From a virus, in the IMG/VR virus record IMGVR_UViG_3300025655_000026, positions 13,517 to 77,516 of that record: a stretch of DNA of 64,000 nucleotides, one strand, 5' to 3'. The position numbers and the translations under genes were made by a program. Below, piece after piece: positions 56,671-64,000 of this stretch. Position 1 is the first letter of the stretch; every line of letters starts with the position of its first letter. The notes beneath the pieces were generated by a model. It was not told the origin of the DNA. It saw only the letters and a program-made list of their open reading frames with translations, and did not search any database.

Positions 56671-56745
56671 TGGTAGGCATGACAGGAATTGAACCCGTAT
56701 CTTCGGCTTAGAAGGCCAAAATGCTATCCATTACACCACATGCCC
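56671..56745 (-). tRNA. tRNA-Arg (anticodon UCU), CCA encoded
   Basis: GGGCATG acceptor / D-arm TGGTGTAATGGATAGCA / anticodon arm TTGGC CTTCTAA GCCGA / GGTTCAATTCC / CATGCCTACCA. Confidence 0.93.
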
Positions 56746-57935: not shown

Positions 57936-59363
57936 TCAGTTCTTTTGTGGTTTTGGCCCACAATAAAACAGGTTTTCTTGCGCTCTTGTAATAGCGACAT
58001 AACAAATATTATTTTCCTCATGTCCTCCTTTTGGATGAGGCATACGCTCAGTTGCTAATAAGAAAACATTAGGTGCTTCAAGCCCTTTAGCCTTATGAAC
58101 AGTTGAAAGCATAATTTCACCTTCTTCTGTTCCATCAAACACCAATTTGATATTCTCAATCATTTGACCAACTGTTTCACTTCGGCTAGCAAAGATATTG
58201 ATACAATCTGCCTTATCGGAAAGATTCATGGCTTGATTCATCTTTTCATCAGCCTCAAGCCGTTGAATTTGAACCGTAACATGAATCTTGAATAATTGGT
58301 TAAACTCATCAATACCCATTGCATCGCTTTTGGTAATCTTACGGATTTCATTAATCAATCCAGTTGTCATATCTCGCCCTAGAATGTAGGCTGATTTACC
58401 ATTACTTACTAATTCATAGAAAGCACTAACGAGAGGGGCATTGTAACGACACAAAACCATATCACCACTTTCGGGAGTAAAGGAAGCATTCTCAACAACT
58501 TTACCAACAATAGCATTAGGTGCATGGTGGAAATCTCTAACATAGCGGTTTGCTTCTTGAACAACTGATGTAGGACAACGCCATGAAATCGTTAAAGGCA
58601 ATTGAATAATTTCTCTATTGGATTCCTTCTCAAGACGATTTCGGAACATATTGATTGAGTTAGAATCAGCCCCACGAAAACCATAGATTGCTTGATTAGG
58701 GTCGCCAACAATAATACAACGACCACCATTTACAACTCGCACAATAAGTTCTCTTTGCATTTCATTGAAGTCTTGGGCTTCATCAACAAAAAGAAGGTCA
58801 TAGTGTGGAAGTGGGTAATTGTTTACTAAGGGCAACCAAATCATATCATCAAAGTCAATCTCATTTGTTTGAGTCTTACATTTGTTAAGAATAGCAGGAA
58901 TTGCGCTAATTGCCTGTTGTTCTTCACGACTTGATTCAAATTGAATATTGTATTCATCAATAAGTCTACGAATACCACGCACATCTCGCCCATCAATCAT
59001 TGAACCTTTGATTAAACCCACTAGTTTAGCCAATGGTGCTGAGAAGTAATCTCGGCCTAGAACTTCACTAATGATATTCTTCACTTTGTAGTTGTTCACT
59101 TTGGTTCTAATTCCAGCCGCACGAATGGCTGAAAATCCGAAGGCATGAAATGTTTTGGCTTCCACATTATCGGGTAATTTCTTTGCTAGTTCAGTTGCGA
59201 TACTTTTGTTAAAAGCAAGGAAAGCCGCATTACCAGTTACTCGGTTTGCCGCTTCTACAATTGTGGAAGTCTTTCCACAACCTGCTCCTGCAATCACAAT
59301 CACATGCTTTTCTGTTTCACCAATAGCGGTGAAAATTGCTTCTTGTTGTTCGGTATATTTCAT
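57936..59363 (-). CDS. UvrD/Rep-like superfamily 1 helicase
   Basis: AGAGCGKT, 'TFHA', 'VDEAQD', 'VGDPNQAIYGFRGA', 'STVHKAKGLE', 'YVAITRA'. Confidence 0.92.
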   Translation of the reverse strand: MKYTEQQEAIFTAIGETEKHVIVIAGAGCGKTSTIVEAANRVTGNAAFLAFNKSIATELAKKLPDNVEAKTFHAFGFSAIRAAGIRTKVNNYKVKNIISEVLGRDYFSAPLAKLVGLIKGSMIDGRDVRGIRRLIDEYNIQFESSREEQQAISAIPAILNKCKTQTNEIDFDDMIWLPLVNNYPLPHYDLLFVDEAQDFNEMQRELIVRVVNGGRCIIVGDPNQAIYGFRGADSNSINMFRNRLEKESNREIIQLPLTISWRCPTSVVQEANRYVRDFHHAPNAIVGKVVENASFTPESGDMVLCRYNAPLVSAFYELVSNGKSAYILGRDMTTGLINEIRKITKSDAMGIDEFNQLFKIHVTVQIQRLEADEKMNQAMNLSDKADCINIFASRSETVGQMIENIKLVFDGTEEGEIMLSTVHKAKGLEAPNVFLLATERMPHPKGGHEENNICYVAITRAQENLFYCGPKPQKN

Positions 59364-59407
59364 TTTTATTTCTCCTTATTTTAATTGTCACAATGGACTA
59401 TGATAGG

Positions 59408-59612
59408 TGGGGAAGATGAGATTAAGTCCTAACGGACATACTGCTCATTTTGGCCACCCGTTCTCATCTTCCCCGTTATCCTAAAGCAAAACGCTTTGCT
59501 TCATAGAGTAGGCGAGGCCACCACGCCCCGACCCCTCAAGGATGCCCCACACCCCTTTTCGGATTTATAAACCCACCCCACCACTCCCGTAAGAGAATAG
59601 TGGCGAAAGCCA
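59408..59612 (-). ncRNA. GC-rich structured intergenic RNA/leader with a G-quadruplex-forming tract
   Basis: 13-bp stem GGGGAAGATGAGA/TCTCATCTTCCCC; 11-bp hairpin needing G-U pairs on the - strand; four GGGG runs at 59526-59555. Confidence 0.45.
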
Positions 59613-59618
59613 AACGCT

Positions 59619-60083
59619 TTATTCTTCTTCGTCAAGAATCAGAGATTGCATTTGACCATCCCATTCTCCAGTTTTATACATACTGGATAATTTGTTACGC
59701 AACTTCTTTAGTTCAGCCAAACGATATTGCTTCTCGTTAGAATACAGACCACCACCTGCTTTACCATGACGGAATAATAGATATGGCATCATTTTGTCAT
59801 GGTTGAAAAAATTAGTTAGCGCACTACCATACACCGAACAAATTTTGTCAATGTTCACTCTTACTGTTGCTGGAATTGAGGTTCTGTTGCCCTTTCTAAA
59901 TGGCGTTCCATCACGGCCTTTCAGCAATGCCTTTATTGATAACATGGCCGTTTCACGCTCATTCATATCATTCTCGCCAATATACAGATTCATTTTGACC
60001 ACCGTAATGACTCCCTCCGACAAATCTTCTGTTGCTTCCAAAAATTCATTCACTTCAACTACAAAGGTTTCCCACTCGCTCAT
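59619..60083 (-). CDS. hypothetical protein, distant paralogue of 60791..61318 and 62715..63218
   Basis: Shared W..V..[FW]L, G..DG.P...G..S, HG..GG and WDG motifs; leaderless after a TATA-like TTCATATA. Confidence 0.65.
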   Translation of the reverse strand: MSEWETFVVEVNEFLEATEDLSEGVITVVKMNLYIGENDMNERETAMLSIKALLKGRDGTPFRKGNRTSIPATVRVNIDKICSVYGSALTNFFNHDKMMPYLLFRHGKAGGGLYSNEKQYRLAELKKLRNKLSSMYKTGEWDGQMQSLILDEEE

Positions 60084-60199
60084 GTCCTAACTACTGTTTT
60101 TGGACTATATGAAGGATTCAATTATTTTCGCTACTTTCTGCTGAAAAATCAGGATTATTTTAGCCCAATAATAAATAGTTTGCACAAATACAAATCTAG

Positions 60200-60510
60200 A
60201 GTCATTTCTCATTTTGATGATGTGTCTCATTTAATGAGAAACGAGAAAAAAGTGCGAAATTCGCTCAAAAACCAAGATTTTGGGGGTTCATTTCTCACAT
60301 TTCTCATTTCTCACCTACCCCTCTTTCTAGAGAGAGAGTATATCCTCTCTCATATATATACAAGAGAGAGATGATGATGAATGAATGAATGAATGATGAG
60401 AAATGAGAAATATGAGAAATGAAAAATAATCTTCATACTTCTGTATGCATATCTACCAAGTTTCTTCTCAGTCGTGTCGCATCTCATTCCGATTTTTGGA
60501 TGAGAAATGA
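60200..60510. repeat. cluster of about 10 TGAGAAA(T) motifs in both orientations around a GA/TA-rich core; candidate origin or packaging/terminus site
   Basis: Three copies on - (60288-60314) face three on + (60396-60420); located at the transcription strand switch. Confidence 0.7.
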
Positions 60511-60790
60511 CAACCTCGCCATATTATATGATATATTGCATATGCAATGAACATATTACATTACCATTTTACATAAGGCCAATTGAAAAATAGTGTAAAT
60601 AAGCACTATTAGAATTAGGTTGGATATTTTTGAATTAAGTAAATGAATGTAAGGTTATTTGTTGTAGTTTCAATCAAATAAAGAGCATTACCATATGGTT
60701 TGAAACGCTTTGTTGCTTCAAACCTTAAATGAGAAATCTCCTATTGGTTGGCTCAAAGGGAAGATTGGCCAAATACATGAGGTGAAACAA

Positions 60791-61318
60791 ATGAAAATAG
60801 AAAATTGGATTACGAATACAACTGCGGTTCGTGCTTGGATGAGCAACGAATTGAAAGACGACGGGGTGCGAGCAACCCTAAGCGGTATCTTTGATATGGC
60901 TAACGAACAATCAAGTGAAGACTTCCTTTCTTCAATGTGGACTGCGGTTCGCAACATTGCAGGGCATCTTGATGGATTCCCAAAAGCCCGTGTTGGACAA
61001 CCCTCCGTTTTGAGTCAAGAAGGTCAAGCCAATGTTGCGAATGTGGCCAGCCTAGTGCGTGGTGCATTTGCATCTATTGGTGAGAATCATGATATTCTCT
61101 TGAAGGTTATCCTACCACATGGCAGAACTGGTGGAGAATTTGAATCATGGTCAGCATACTGTGACCACATGGCTTCAACTGCTGAAAACAACATGCTTTC
61201 CGCAGTTAAGGAAAACCGATGGAATGCGGAAGAAGACATTTTGACCTGTCAAGCACCACTAACAAAGGCAGAGAAGGATGCTCTCAAAGAAGAAGGAGGC
61301 GTCACTCAAGAAGAGTGA
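60791..61318 (+). CDS. hypothetical protein, cassette 1 (paralogue family)
   Basis: GAGGTGA SD; shares 'WT..RNI.G..D.FPKARVGQ.S' with 62715. Confidence 0.75.
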   Translation: MKIENWITNTTAVRAWMSNELKDDGVRATLSGIFDMANEQSSEDFLSSMWTAVRNIAGHLDGFPKARVGQPSVLSQEGQANVANVASLVRGAFASIGENHDILLKVILPHGRTGGEFESWSAYCDHMASTAENNMLSAVKENRWNAEEDILTCQAPLTKAEKDALKEEGGVTQEE

Positions 61319-61472
61319 TGTTTTCTTCACCAAAACCGCCAATCTTCCCTTTGGCCACCCCTCCTCATGAGGGGTGGTCGTCGGGGTCAAGTAAATGAAC
61401 ACCAAAGTAAGTGCAACCATATGGTAGGTGACTTTGGAACATACCTCATATTTGAGAAATTTACTCAAGGGT

Positions 61473-61691
61473 ATGAAACTTGATGTTTTGATTGAGGTGC
61501 TTGAAGATTTGAGATATTTGGAGAGGTTGAACTACGATGACTTCAAAGACTTATTATTTCCCGACTCCGAATACCATTATGTGGATATGAAATGGGAACT
61601 ATTTAGAGATAACAGATATCATTTTTTACAATTGAGTTCAAATGACAAATTACAAATTTTAGTGGACTACATCAATAGAATAAAAGAATGA
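61473..61691 (+). CDS. hypothetical protein, cassette 2 (leaderless)
   Basis: ATG about 25 nt after the AT-rich box of element 2. Confidence 0.6.
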   Translation: MKLDVLIEVLEDLRYLERLNYDDFKDLLFPDSEYHYVDMKWELFRDNRYHFLQLSSNDKLQILVDYINRIKE

Positions 61692-61701
61692 AGGTGAGTT
61701 A

Positions 61702-61866
61702 ATGCCAATAGGAATATGTATAAAATGTGGTGAAGAACACGATTGCGATACTGGGATTATGGGATTATTTCGTTTGAAGTGTTACGAATGTGAACGCATT
61801 GATGACGAATTATATGAAAAGGAATCAGCCGAGTTAGATAGATATGAAGAGGAGAGAGATAGATGA
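61702..61866 (+). CDS. 54-aa Zn-finger microprotein, cassette 2
   Basis: MPIGICIKC...CYEC; GGTGA SD. Confidence 0.55.
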   Translation: MPIGICIKCGEEHDCDTGIMGLFRLKCYECERIDDELYEKESAELDRYEEERDR

Positions 61867-61982
61867 GATGGAATGTGCCTATCAAAGAAAGCCCCTTCAA
61901 GGTGTCAAAGTGTAAAGAATGCAATGAACAATATTTGGGATTGTATTATGACACATGCACCGATTGTCGGCTTGGGATTTAA
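61863..61982 (+). CDS. 39-aa Zn-finger microprotein, cassette 2
   Basis: ATGA overlap; CKEC...CTDC. Confidence 0.5.
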   Translation: MRWNVPIKESPFKVSKCKECNEQYLGLYYDTCTDCRLGI

Positions 61983-61989
61983 AGCAACC

Positions 61990-62023
61990 AAAAAAAAACT
62001 ACGGTTTTTCCCTTCGGGGTTTT
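61990..62023 (+). terminator. double UNCG-tetraloop hairpin + T-run (repeated terminator)
   Basis: AAAAACTACGGTTTTTCCCTTCGGGGTTTT; near-identical copies at 62575-62605 and 63626-63658. Confidence 0.7.
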
Positions 62024-62099
62024 GAGCGCAAAGCGTCACACCATATGGTAATGAACTTTGTGAAATTAACCCATAAATGAGAATTCTCCTCTTGGGTGT

Positions 62100-62355
62100 A
62101 AGCAAGCAATACTAGTCAATGGCTTGCTGAAAAGAAACATCAATGCAACGGAAATATGCAGGGTATGGCGGTAGGCCGAACCATTGGGAACGAGTTGGAA
62201 TTCCGAGTGTTCTCATGTAAGTGGTGGCTGTGAATCCCAAAAACTCCCGTAAGTCTCATGAAAGAAGGAAGGGCAGTCTGCTTGATGTATTCCCACTCAC
62301 AAGGGGGAGAATCCACCGCTACTTTGGATTCTCCCCCGCCCTACGGGGTTTTTTT
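62100..62355 (+). ncRNA. candidate structured ncRNA, cassette 3
   Basis: Own promoter-like element and terminator; no ATG ORF longer than 25 aa; stems AGCAAGC/GCTTGCT, ACATCAA/TTGATGT, GGGGGAGAATCCA/TGGATTCTCCCCC. Confidence 0.5.
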
Positions 62356-62429
62356 GATAACAAAGCATCACACCATATGGTTCTAACTTTGTGTTTAGAA
62401 CCTTATGTTTGAGAAATTCAGCATTAGGC

Positions 62430-62567
62430 ATGTATAAGAATACATATGATGCGAATTGCGAAGGTTGCGGAAACAATGTTGAAATTAGTCTCTATGGCTA
62501 CATTGGGGAATTCAAGTATGTTTGGTGTGAAGAATGTGGCTATGAGGGCGAAAACAAAAATGAGTGA
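62430..62567 (+). CDS. 45-aa Zn-ribbon microprotein, cassette 4 (leaderless)
   Basis: MYKNTYDANCEGC...WCEECG. Confidence 0.6.
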   Translation: MYKNTYDANCEGCGNNVEISLYGYIGEFKYVWCEECGYEGENKNE

Positions 62568-62574
62568 AATCATC

Positions 62575-62605
62575 AAAAAACCTTCGGGTTTCCCTTCGGG
62601 GTTTT
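62575..62605 (+). terminator. double cUUCGg hairpin terminator
   Basis: AAAAAACCTTCGGGTTTCCCTTCGGGGTTTT. Confidence 0.7.
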
Positions 62606-62714
62606 AATACCAAAGTAACACCATATGGTAATGCTTTGCACTTTCCTCATTTATTTGAGAAAATGAGTCTTGGTTGCTTCGGGGGCGAAGTGATGAATTG
62701 CACCAACAAAGGAG

Positions 62715-63218
62715 ATGAATACCATGAAGTTGAGTAATTGGAATACAAACATTGAGCGAGTTCTCAGTTGGTTAAACACAACTGAGAATGATATTAGTGG
62801 AGTTGAAAGCACAATCAAGTCTATTATTGGTTTGGCTGGAACTTCCGAAAACGAAGAACTACTTGGAGCATATTGGACTTCAATTAGGAATATTGGCGGT
62901 CAATTTGATGACTTCCCAAAAGCGAGAGTTGGTCAAACTTCCAACTATCCCGAAGAAGTTATCATGTCTGTGGAGAGTGTGACGAATCATGTATCATCTG
63001 TCTTTGCGTCTGTTTTTGATGACATTCTTCAATCGGTTATGTTGCCTAGAGGGATGAAGTCACGGCATATGACAAATAATGCCTTCGGAACTTATTTTGC
63101 TAGTTCGGCACAACGAGTTCTCTTTATGGCATATGACGATGGCCGATGGGATGGCACTTTATCTAAGAAAGGAGTGCCAAATGTCGCCCTAATTGAAGTG
63201 GAGGAAACAACGGAGTGA
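62715..63218 (+). CDS. hypothetical protein, cassette 5 (paralogue family)
   Basis: Clear similarity to 60791..61318. Confidence 0.75.
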   Translation: MNTMKLSNWNTNIERVLSWLNTTENDISGVESTIKSIIGLAGTSENEELLGAYWTSIRNIGGQFDDFPKARVGQTSNYPEEVIMSVESVTNHVSSVFASVFDDILQSVMLPRGMKSRHMTNNAFGTYFASSAQRVLFMAYDDGRWDGTLSKKGVPNVALIEVEETTE

Positions 63219-63328
63219 TTTTATCACTCGCCCCCGTTGCTCTACTTCAAGTGGGGTTAGTGCAAAGCATAACCATATGGTAGGAACTTTGTAAACTACC
63301 TTAATATTCAAGAAATTAAGGCTTAATC

Positions 63329-63619
63329 ATGCGAAAGATTACGCAAGACGCAATAAGAGCCTTTAGGAACGGAAACAACTTCAAGAGAGGTAATACAGAA
63401 GTGCGAATTTTAGACAATTCTCGCCAACTTCGCCTTCATGGGAATGTTATCGCTGAATATGTTGCTGATGGTGGGCTTTGGATTTCATCGGGTGGGTGGC
63501 AATCAAACACAACAAAGGAACGCTTGAACGGCCTTCCTAATGTGCATATTCATCAAAAGAACTTTCAATGGTTCTTGAATGGTGAAGCATGGGATGGCGA
63601 ATTCATTTTAGTTGAATGA
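63329..63619 (+). CDS. hypothetical protein, cassette 6 (leaderless)
   Basis: 'LHGNVIA...GGWQSNTTKERLNGL...QKNFQW'. Confidence 0.7.
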   Translation: MRKITQDAIRAFRNGNNFKRGNTEVRILDNSRQLRLHGNVIAEYVADGGLWISSGGWQSNTTKERLNGLPNVHIHQKNFQWFLNGEAWDGEFILVE

Positions 63620-63625
63620 AACGAT

Positions 63626-63658
63626 AAAAAAACCTTCGGGTTTTCCCTTCGGGGTTTT
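63626..63658 (+). terminator. double cUUCGg hairpin terminator
   Basis: AAAAAAACCTTCGGGTTTTCCCTTCGGGGTTTT. Confidence 0.7.
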
Positions 63659-63819
63659 AAAGCACAAAGTTACAACCATATGGCTTTGTTCCAAATTTTT
63701 ATTTTGCTGTTCATTTAAAGCCATTTAATTTAATGCGTAAAAATAGAACTAAAACGCCCCATATTAACCACTTTAAAGCCAAATAAATATATGTAGTTCG
63801 GCCTTTTCGCCCATACTGA

Positions 63820-64000
63820 ATGAAAGAGACTACTTTGCACAAAACAAATACTGAAGAATCAAATGGTTCGTCTGAACATCGTTTAGAATTAGACAAACTA
63901 ATAGAAAGAATACAAAATGCTAGAAAAGCAATCAAGGAATACACGCAAAAAGATTCTAAATTAAATGAAGATACTTTAAACTATTTAAAATCAATAAATA
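63820..64000 (+). CDS. N-terminal part of an ORF running out of the window
   Basis: ATG 63820 open to the end; AT-rich TAAATATAT box upstream. Confidence 0.5.
   Translation, partial: MKETTLHKTNTEESNGSSEHRLELDKLIERIQNARKAIKEYTQKDSKLNEDTLNYLKSIN

Follow-up and report, generated by a model that had tools for sequence, protein, structure and literature searches.

A clustered, three-tier palindrome between terminator hairpins and predicted archaeal-type promoters in magrovirus gene arrays

The cassette array and its genes

We analysed a window of 64,000 nucleotides (nt) of the virus record IMGVR_UViG_3300025655_000026 (bases 13517–77516 of 77.5 kb, estimated 83% complete), near the end of which a palindromic site is repeated between small genes. 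The window encodes a family-B DNA polymerase, an ATP-dependent ligase, a chaperonin, a UvrD-type helicase and a tail tube protein, and its nearest polymerase relatives are IMG/VR contigs of 90–100 kb; the virus is a tailed magrovirus-type virus of Marine Group II ocean archaea. Seven exact ACCATATGG cores with CAAAG and CTTTG arms around them were found where the initial annotation had placed them, at 60690, 61416, 62040, 62372, 62620, 63272 and 63675, in an array that spans 60679–63688 and ends 312 nt before the contig does. No further ACCATATGGT occurs anywhere in the 77.5-kb record. When one mismatch is allowed the core has 27 matches (12.3 ± 4.2 in shuffled sequence), the exact ones all inside the array, and the full CAAAG-N-ACCATATGG-N-CTTTG pattern is absent from 100 shuffles. 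The exact motif is therefore confined to the array and not scattered at random through the record. Restriction avoidance was ruled out as a cause, since CATATG is not depleted elsewhere in the window (32 copies, about 36 expected).

The array repeats a unit of site, promoter, heterogeneous cargo and terminator, as had been proposed, with a hairpin before sites 2–7 and a promoter box after sites 1–6. The first description of the arms, the spacers, the upstream hairpins and the three near-identical double UNCG hairpins was confirmed, with one correction: the right arm of copy 1 lies at 60708–60712. The A/T box and TGAGAA motif of copies 1–6 (CAAGAA in a variant), together with a leaderless ATG or a leader, were confirmed in the sequence. 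Promoters, cassettes, hairpins, the last site and the gene beyond it all lie on the plus strand. Site 1 (TAAAG-N6-ACCATATGGT-N8-CTTTG; 60679–60712) opens the array without an upstream hairpin and is followed by the box ACCTTAAA then TGAGAAAT (60722–60737; CTTTG-to-TGAGAA gap 17 nt). Cassette 1 is a gene for an acidic, all-alpha protein of 175 amino acids (aa) belonging to family 0 (60791–61318), with a leader and a GAGGTGA ribosome-binding site, and has a GC-rich hairpin 3′ of it (CCACCCCTC / GAGGGGTGG; 61355–61377). Site 2 (CAAAG-N8-ACCATATGGT-N6-CTTTG; 61403–61436) leads into ACCTCATATT then TGAGAAAT (61441–61460) and a predicted leaderless cassette 2 (61473–61982), which holds a 72-aa open reading frame (ORF) and two CxxC microproteins (61702–61866 and 61863–61982) and is followed by a double hairpin with UACG and UUCG loops and a T run (61993–62023). 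Site 3 (CAAAG-N6-ACCATATGGT-N6-CTTTG; 62029–62060) precedes cassette 3 (62069–62356), made up of the box ACCCATAAA with TGAGAAT, a candidate structured non-coding RNA and a terminator (62334–62355).

Site 4 (CAAAG-N6-ACCATATGGT-N5-CTTTG; 62361–62391) heads cassette 4 (62400–62567), in which the box ACCTTATGTT and TGAGAAAT precede a leaderless 45-aa zinc-finger microprotein (62430–62567); a double UUCG hairpin and a T run follow (62575–62605). Site 5 (CAAAG-N4-ACCATATGGT-N4-CTTTG; 62611–62638) heads cassette 5 (62645–63218), with the box CCTCATTTATT and TGAGAAAA, a second family-0 paralogue (62724–63218, 164 aa) and a GC-rich CCCC ... GGGG hairpin 3′ of it (63233–63256). Behind site 6 (CAAAG-N4-ACCATATGGT-N5-CTTTG; 63263–63291), cassette 6 (63298–63619) carries the box ACCTTAATATT and CAAGAAAT and a leaderless 96-aa Kyano_Gp96 / phrog_554 protein (63329–63619), and is closed by a further double UUCG hairpin and T run (63627–63658). 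Site 7 (CAAAG-N5-ACCATATGGCTTTG then TTCCAAATTTTTATTTT; 63665–63706) has a form of its own and ends the array. The first gene beyond it (63820–64000) runs off the contig end. Within the window CTTTG is separated from TGAGAA by 16–18 nt and the core by 26–30 nt. In cassettes 2, 4 and 6 the T of TGAGAA or CAAGAA stands 20 nt ahead of the ATG, and the genes of cassettes 1 and 5 are preceded by a leader of about 40 nt that contains a GAGGTGA or AGGAGA ribosome-binding site.

The cargo is equally mixed across the loci of related viruses described below, where the 651 ORFs of 483 inter-site segments fall into 309 families. The commonest of these, and the hallmark of the arrays, is family 0, with 106 members in 72 of 118 loci. 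The window has its two paralogues in cassettes 1 and 5 and, by motif comparison, a third at 59619–60083 on the minus strand; these proteins are acidic and about 170 aa long. AlphaFold gives family 0 a confident all-alpha model (predicted local distance difference test score 92). No match was found in Pfam, PHROGs, PDB sequences, Foldseek or the protein atlas, and VIA-align returned generic three-helix-bundle matches only (Z up to 8.1). Family 2, which includes the cassette 6 protein, is Kyano_Gp96 (PF23790, 8e-22) / phrog_554, a small-protein family shared with cyanophages; this sharing suggests gene flow among marine viruses of different host domains. Cassette 3 (62098–62356) has no plausible ORF, and its RNA fold (−88.1 kcal/mol, z −3.25) was not equalled by any of 200 shuffles, which agrees with the earlier suggestion of a possible non-coding RNA among the cargo. 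It has no homologues by DNA in the fetched loci, and Rfam gave nothing above noise on 59300–64000. Non-coding cassettes are also present in many arrays of relatives.

Distribution and anatomy of the site

The scan of related magroviruses called for by the initial annotation shows the motif to be family-wide. The arm-core-arm pattern occurs in at least 118 IMG/VR stretches from more than 90 magrovirus-type contigs, and the fetched loci, about 1 Mb in all, contain about 500 cores at intervals of 300–1,500 nt. Seven relatives estimated to be 100% complete carry 3–11 cores each, per genome all within one cluster of 2–5 kb, and a reversed control pattern has no match in them. In 596 Gb of prokaryotic genomes the pattern occurs in 36 stretches, 35 of which are single hits in unrelated bacteria (about 27 expected by chance). 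The remaining one is a five-site array on a 14.7-kb contig, NZ_NZTP01000027.1 (L149), binned as an Altibacter sp. metagenome-assembled genome (MAG). This contig, on which six cores were counted, encodes typical array proteins (families 0, 2, 4, 7 and 18), which makes it most likely a magrovirus fragment wrongly assigned to a flavobacterial MAG. The element looks virus-specific because no Poseidoniales genome in the same scan matched the pattern.

Two further observations concern these relatives. The record IMGVR_UViG_3300021958_000021 (184,733 bp; L014, L071, L109, L214 and L232) has polymerase copies at about 39 kb and 130 kb and arrays at about 4–17 kb and 97–111 kb, and is probably two magrovirus genomes fused in assembly. 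A tRNA-Arg(TCT) gene of the window (56671–56745, minus strand) is 82–96% identical at the DNA level in about ten relatives, in which the flanking DNA cannot be aligned.

The site is a three-tier fuzzy palindrome, GGGTT..CAAAG..ACCATATGGT..CTTTG..AACCC, of which the 10-bp core is invariant. The core is weakly extended to WGTR and the arm consensus is RCTTTG. On both sides core and arm are 2–12 nt apart, most often 4 nt; overall the core floats by −2 to +12 nt. Left and right spacer lengths are weakly anticorrelated (r = −0.22). Attempts to orient sites by fold energy or by an expectation-maximization motif failed because ACC(C) is present on both flanks, and it was this failure that brought the third tier to notice. 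Of 822 flanks, 78% have ACC(C) 3–10 nt beyond the arm (17% in a control window), and 213 of 328 two-armed sites have it on both sides. On one flank ACC heads the A/T box and so marks the promoter; on the other it is the complement of the GGGG-TT end of the CCCC-loop-GGGG hairpin. A cassette therefore starts with AACCC and ends with GGGTT. A separate palindrome, ATTGCATATGCAAT at 60535–60548, was set aside, as relatives do not conserve it.

Variable spacing had been taken to favour a folded single strand, as in integron attC sites. Single-strand DNA folds of the seven sites are weak, however (−1.4 to −5.5 kcal/mol; z +0.87 to −1.86 against shuffles), and spacers within a site pair no better than shuffled partners do (z = −2.8 beside the core, +2.0 beside the arm), so this explanation of the spacing is not supported. 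By these measures conservation acts on sequence, not on structure. The same results bear on an RNA-level signal, such as a processing or dimerization hairpin in read-through transcripts. The site is palindromic and stands directly 3′ of hairpins that may terminate incompletely, but its fold does not differ from shuffles, it shows no covariation, what is conserved is its sequence and it lies downstream of the T runs, all of which make an RNA signal extremely improbable.

Copy 7, described at first as a collapsed, promoter-less closure, is instead a conserved element that heads the next gene block. It consists of ACCATATGGCTTTG and a T-rich tail resembling TTTCAAATTTTTTATTT, is found in 48 loci with a single polarity throughout, and is the last site in 45 of them; in the other three one further core match follows. 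In many relatives (L012, L021, L023, L025, L078 and others) the first gene beyond this element, about 110–175 nt past it, is a conserved ORF for a coiled-coil protein of about 75 aa that ends in QTSLxDF. The window ORF at 63820 occupies the same place, with weak similarity. Four contigs, the window record among them, stop 74–312 nt past the array-end element.

Register with archaeal-type promoters

When the flanks of sites across the family are measured from the end of CTTTG to the nearest following ATG opening an ORF of 40 aa or more, the distances show a sharp peak at 36–39 nt (118 of 463 flanks); core-to-ATG distances are more broadly distributed. It is thus the promoter-side arm that holds a fixed position, at −43 to −39 from the leaderless ATG, while the core floats further upstream. 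A second group of CTTTG-to-ATG distances, at 76–98 nt, fits the leader-bearing family-0 genes of the window. Alignment of 181 unique promoters on their ATG gave a pyrimidine at −1 in 88% and then A at +1, which is the archaeal initiator pattern; upstream of it lie an A/T-rich stretch at −26 to −22, CC at −32 to −28 and TTT(G) at −42 to −39. In this statistical profile of sequences with predicted starts, the geometry is that of an archaeal transcription factor B recognition element (BRE), TATA box and initiator with leaderless transcripts, and the arm abuts the BRE position. A sigma-70 promoter scan found no excess (15 against 13.2 ± 3.6 in shuffles). Sites with promoters on both sides occur, as do a few with hairpins on both sides. 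The fixed register of the CTTTG arm with the start codon fits one role that had been offered for the site, that of an operator of a co-regulated gene set.

The constraint on the promoter side is exemplified by a complete relative, G009 (93 kb, polymerase 66% identical), which has no canonical core. There a fused, asymmetric ACCATATGCTTTG replaces the palindrome in the layout CTTACCATATGCTTTGG-N6-ACC-TATATATT-N18-ATG. Seven copies lie beside the genome's one family-0 gene and all seven point toward their promoter; the locus (L243; G009:C1:4600–9000) contains the 23-nt unit AAATTGCCAAAGCATATGGTAAG seven times, five copies being identical and two having one base changed. G009 also has one canonical array-end element, and its variant site is rare in IMG/VR. 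In this form the symmetry is lost and the half next to the promoter stays in register, which argues that the constraint is linked to transcription.

In archaea, upstream activator sites beside the BRE are exemplified by those of Ptr2 in Methanocaldococcus and TFB-RF1 in Pyrococcus. As in those systems, the magrovirus site is symmetric, ends directly upstream of BRE/TATA at about −40 and defines a small regulon, if it is such an operator. It differs from them in its unusual three-tier architecture and variable spacing, in being viral and in being present also where no promoter follows.

The lineage of the window has a second repeated motif. The octamer TGAGAAAT occurs in about ten copies on both strands of a strand-switch region (60180–60550) that is also the cumulative GC-skew minimum, and again at −20 to −13 of five cassette promoters (60730, 61453, 62078, 62410 and 62656), between the A/T box and the start. 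Relatives lack the octamer at that position, so that it resembles a second operator or iteron confined to this lineage. TGAGAA was likewise rejected as a family-wide promoter element, being absent beside sites in relatives and specific to the window lineage. A loose ACC and A/T pattern, tried as a test for the promoter type elsewhere in the window, proved too common to tell.

The position of the array next to this strand-switch region, with its TGAGAAAT repeats and skew minimum, and the presence of one palindrome cluster per genome would also suit a genome-organising protein, the sites serving a centromere (parS-like), origin-associated or packaging factor in replication or segregation. Against this, the sites stand one per intergenic gap and in promoter register, not grouped in a non-coding tract, and no ParA- or ParB-type match was found among the ORFs scanned. 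We regard a genome-organising role as highly improbable.

Exchange at the sites and the function of the module

Cassette order differs widely among genomes, and family-0 genes run in either direction relative to the array-end element (37 co-directional, 20 inverted). As no close DNA relative of the window was present among the fetched loci, breakpoints were analysed on pairs of other genomes. In all-against-all blastn of the loci, 224 of 794 ends of high-scoring segment pairs inside arrays fall 0–19 nt beyond the core centre and almost none in the 30 nt before it. A strict filter (at least 85% identity over at least 200 nt, no collinear continuation, duplicates removed) left 90 unique junctions, of which 28 lie 0–24 nt beyond the core centre, where 6.7% would be expected from the share of positions. 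Moreover, several of 25 two-sided replacement events have one or both boundaries at a site. Content, order and orientation vary between genomes, and breakpoints concentrate at the core, the pattern that had been put forward as a test for exchange sites. The pile-up means that homology stops inside the site, the promoter moving with the downstream gene and the hairpin with the upstream gene.

Breakpoint enrichment and mosaic arrays could be explained by a boundary of recombination and nothing else, the block persisting merely through homologous exchange of modules and the site having no regulatory role. A 10-bp core with short, variably spaced arms would be poor homology for general recombination, however, and both the fixed arm-to-ATG distance and the promoter-oriented variant of G009 indicate a constraint tied to transcription. 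We therefore think a pure boundary unlikely.

The initial annotation had compared the arrays with integrons, and the comparison holds in part. As at attC, single-gene units are separated by imperfect palindromes whose ends are conserved and whose middle varies, and in both systems the cargo is heterogeneous and mostly of unknown function. An integron-like site-specific system, in which cassettes are captured, excised and inverted by a recombinase that breaks and joins DNA at the ACCATATGGT core, would account for the invariance of that core, for cassettes in both orientations, for breakpoints at the core, for sites without a promoter on either side and for the polar end element of each array. 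The genome-wide recombinase search speaks against it: neither Phage_integrase (PF00589) nor Resolvase was found in the record (83% complete) or in four complete relatives (G001–G004), and the controls were positive, with PF00589 in 14 of 14 control genomes. Integron cassettes are further set apart from those described here by the magrovirus arrays' lack of an IntI-type recombinase, of a stable folded strand or spacer complementarity, and of a recognizable attI or common promoter (Pc) platform. The magrovirus sites conserve sequence, not structure; every cassette has its own promoter and terminator, with its own A/T box at a fixed distance from the ATG; the arm is in register with the ATG; and the G009 variant is asymmetric and oriented to its promoter. 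Such a system is very unlikely here. Nothing speaks for a third proposed role, in staged DNA entry.

Loose spacing, promoterless sites and the failure of the domain scans to show a binding protein leave room for a dedicated recombination or inversion machinery that is neither a tyrosine nor a serine recombinase. It would target the nested palindrome and mobilize self-expressing cassettes within and between magroviruses, with the end element as the boundary of a platform. We consider this quite unlikely; if true, it would be an archaeal-virus counterpart of the integron. As a separate observation, one small ORF within 27573–57882 matches an ERCC4/XPF-type nuclease domain (1.5e-17) in a scan that also gave helix-hairpin-helix family matches; by its domain, the protein could cut branched DNA and have a part in recombination.

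The closest known likeness is to the promoter-early stem-loops (PeSLs) of T4-type phages, in which modules of terminator and promoter are repeated between small non-essential genes in a hyperplastic region, and the boundaries of insertions, deletions and replacements coincide with the modules, leading to modular shuffling (PMC2839356, PMC4122927). Stem-loop and promoter are likewise combined between the small genes of a variable region in the window and in its relatives, and homology boundaries coincide with the modules here too, so the PeSL analogy drawn at the outset stands on both counts; it does not extend to sigma-70. The magrovirus promoter appears archaeal by its BRE-like CC, A/T box, Y/A start and predicted lack of a leader, and an invariant palindrome with arms is added between hairpin and promoter. 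There is, besides, one array per genome with a polar end element, and cassettes are also inverted. The sites have no sequence homology to PeSLs.

Weighing these observations, we consider it probable, if well short of certain, that the palindrome is a promoter-upstream regulator site within a terminator-site-promoter module that doubles as an exchange point. The regulator-site part of this reading rests on sequence-specific conservation, one regulon-like block per genome, the fixed register of arm and promoter and the oriented variant of G009. The site would lie in untranscribed DNA, after the terminator hairpin of one small unit and before the archaeal-type promoter of the unit that follows, with transcription most likely starting at the A of the leaderless ATG or, in family-0 genes, about 40 nt ahead of the ribosome-binding site. 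We infer that a symmetric DNA-binding regulator, dimeric or of higher order and encoded by virus or host, would recognize the invariant 10-bp core and the arms and, seated beside the BRE, control recruitment of TBP/TFB. As the site is placed upstream of the BRE without overlapping it, activation is likelier than repression. One block of 2–5 kb of fast-evolving accessory genes would thus form a single regulon and, by analogy with phage regions of like kind, these are probably early genes of host takeover. The module would also be a preferred crossover point for general recombination, because it is the only sequence common to otherwise unrelated cassettes, and units running from half-site through promoter, gene and terminator to half-site may be shuffled, replaced and inverted between genomes as PeSL-bounded genes are.

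Several points weigh against this reading. The range of core-to-arm spacings is unusual for a single rigid operator, and spacer lengths on the two sides are only weakly anticorrelated. A recognizable promoter-plus-ORF flank is present at about 60% of sites by a rough classifier, and some sites sit between two hairpins. No regulator appears among the other common cassette families, which have no Pfam match, and Pfam showed no helix-turn-helix or ribbon-helix-helix domain in 51 small window ORFs or in the cassette families. As to exchange, 62 of the 90 strict junctions lie elsewhere, and selection that lets only intact units survive would also place breakpoints at sites.

Few viruses of the surface ocean are more abundant than magroviruses; to our knowledge, neither they nor their host have been cultured. 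The magrovirus literature that we searched mentions no promoter or palindrome and contains nothing on transcription, and papers retrieved with the core sequence are, by their titles and abstracts, unrelated to viruses and presumably contain it in primers. The profile described here would be the first concrete promoter model for magroviruses, with CTTTG at −40, a BRE-like CC, an A/T box and a leaderless Y/A start, and it is independent evidence for an archaeal host. Magrovirus contigs, those mis-binned in bacterial MAGs among them, can be recognized by the 20-nt pattern, which is specific enough for this purpose, and the natural site variant of G009 could help to find a binding protein that co-varies with it. 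The element would delimit a regulon of fast-evolving accessory genes, which are likely candidates for host takeover or anti-defence, and would extend from T4-type phages to archaeal viruses the idea, embodied by PeSLs, that regulatory modules double as points of exchange.

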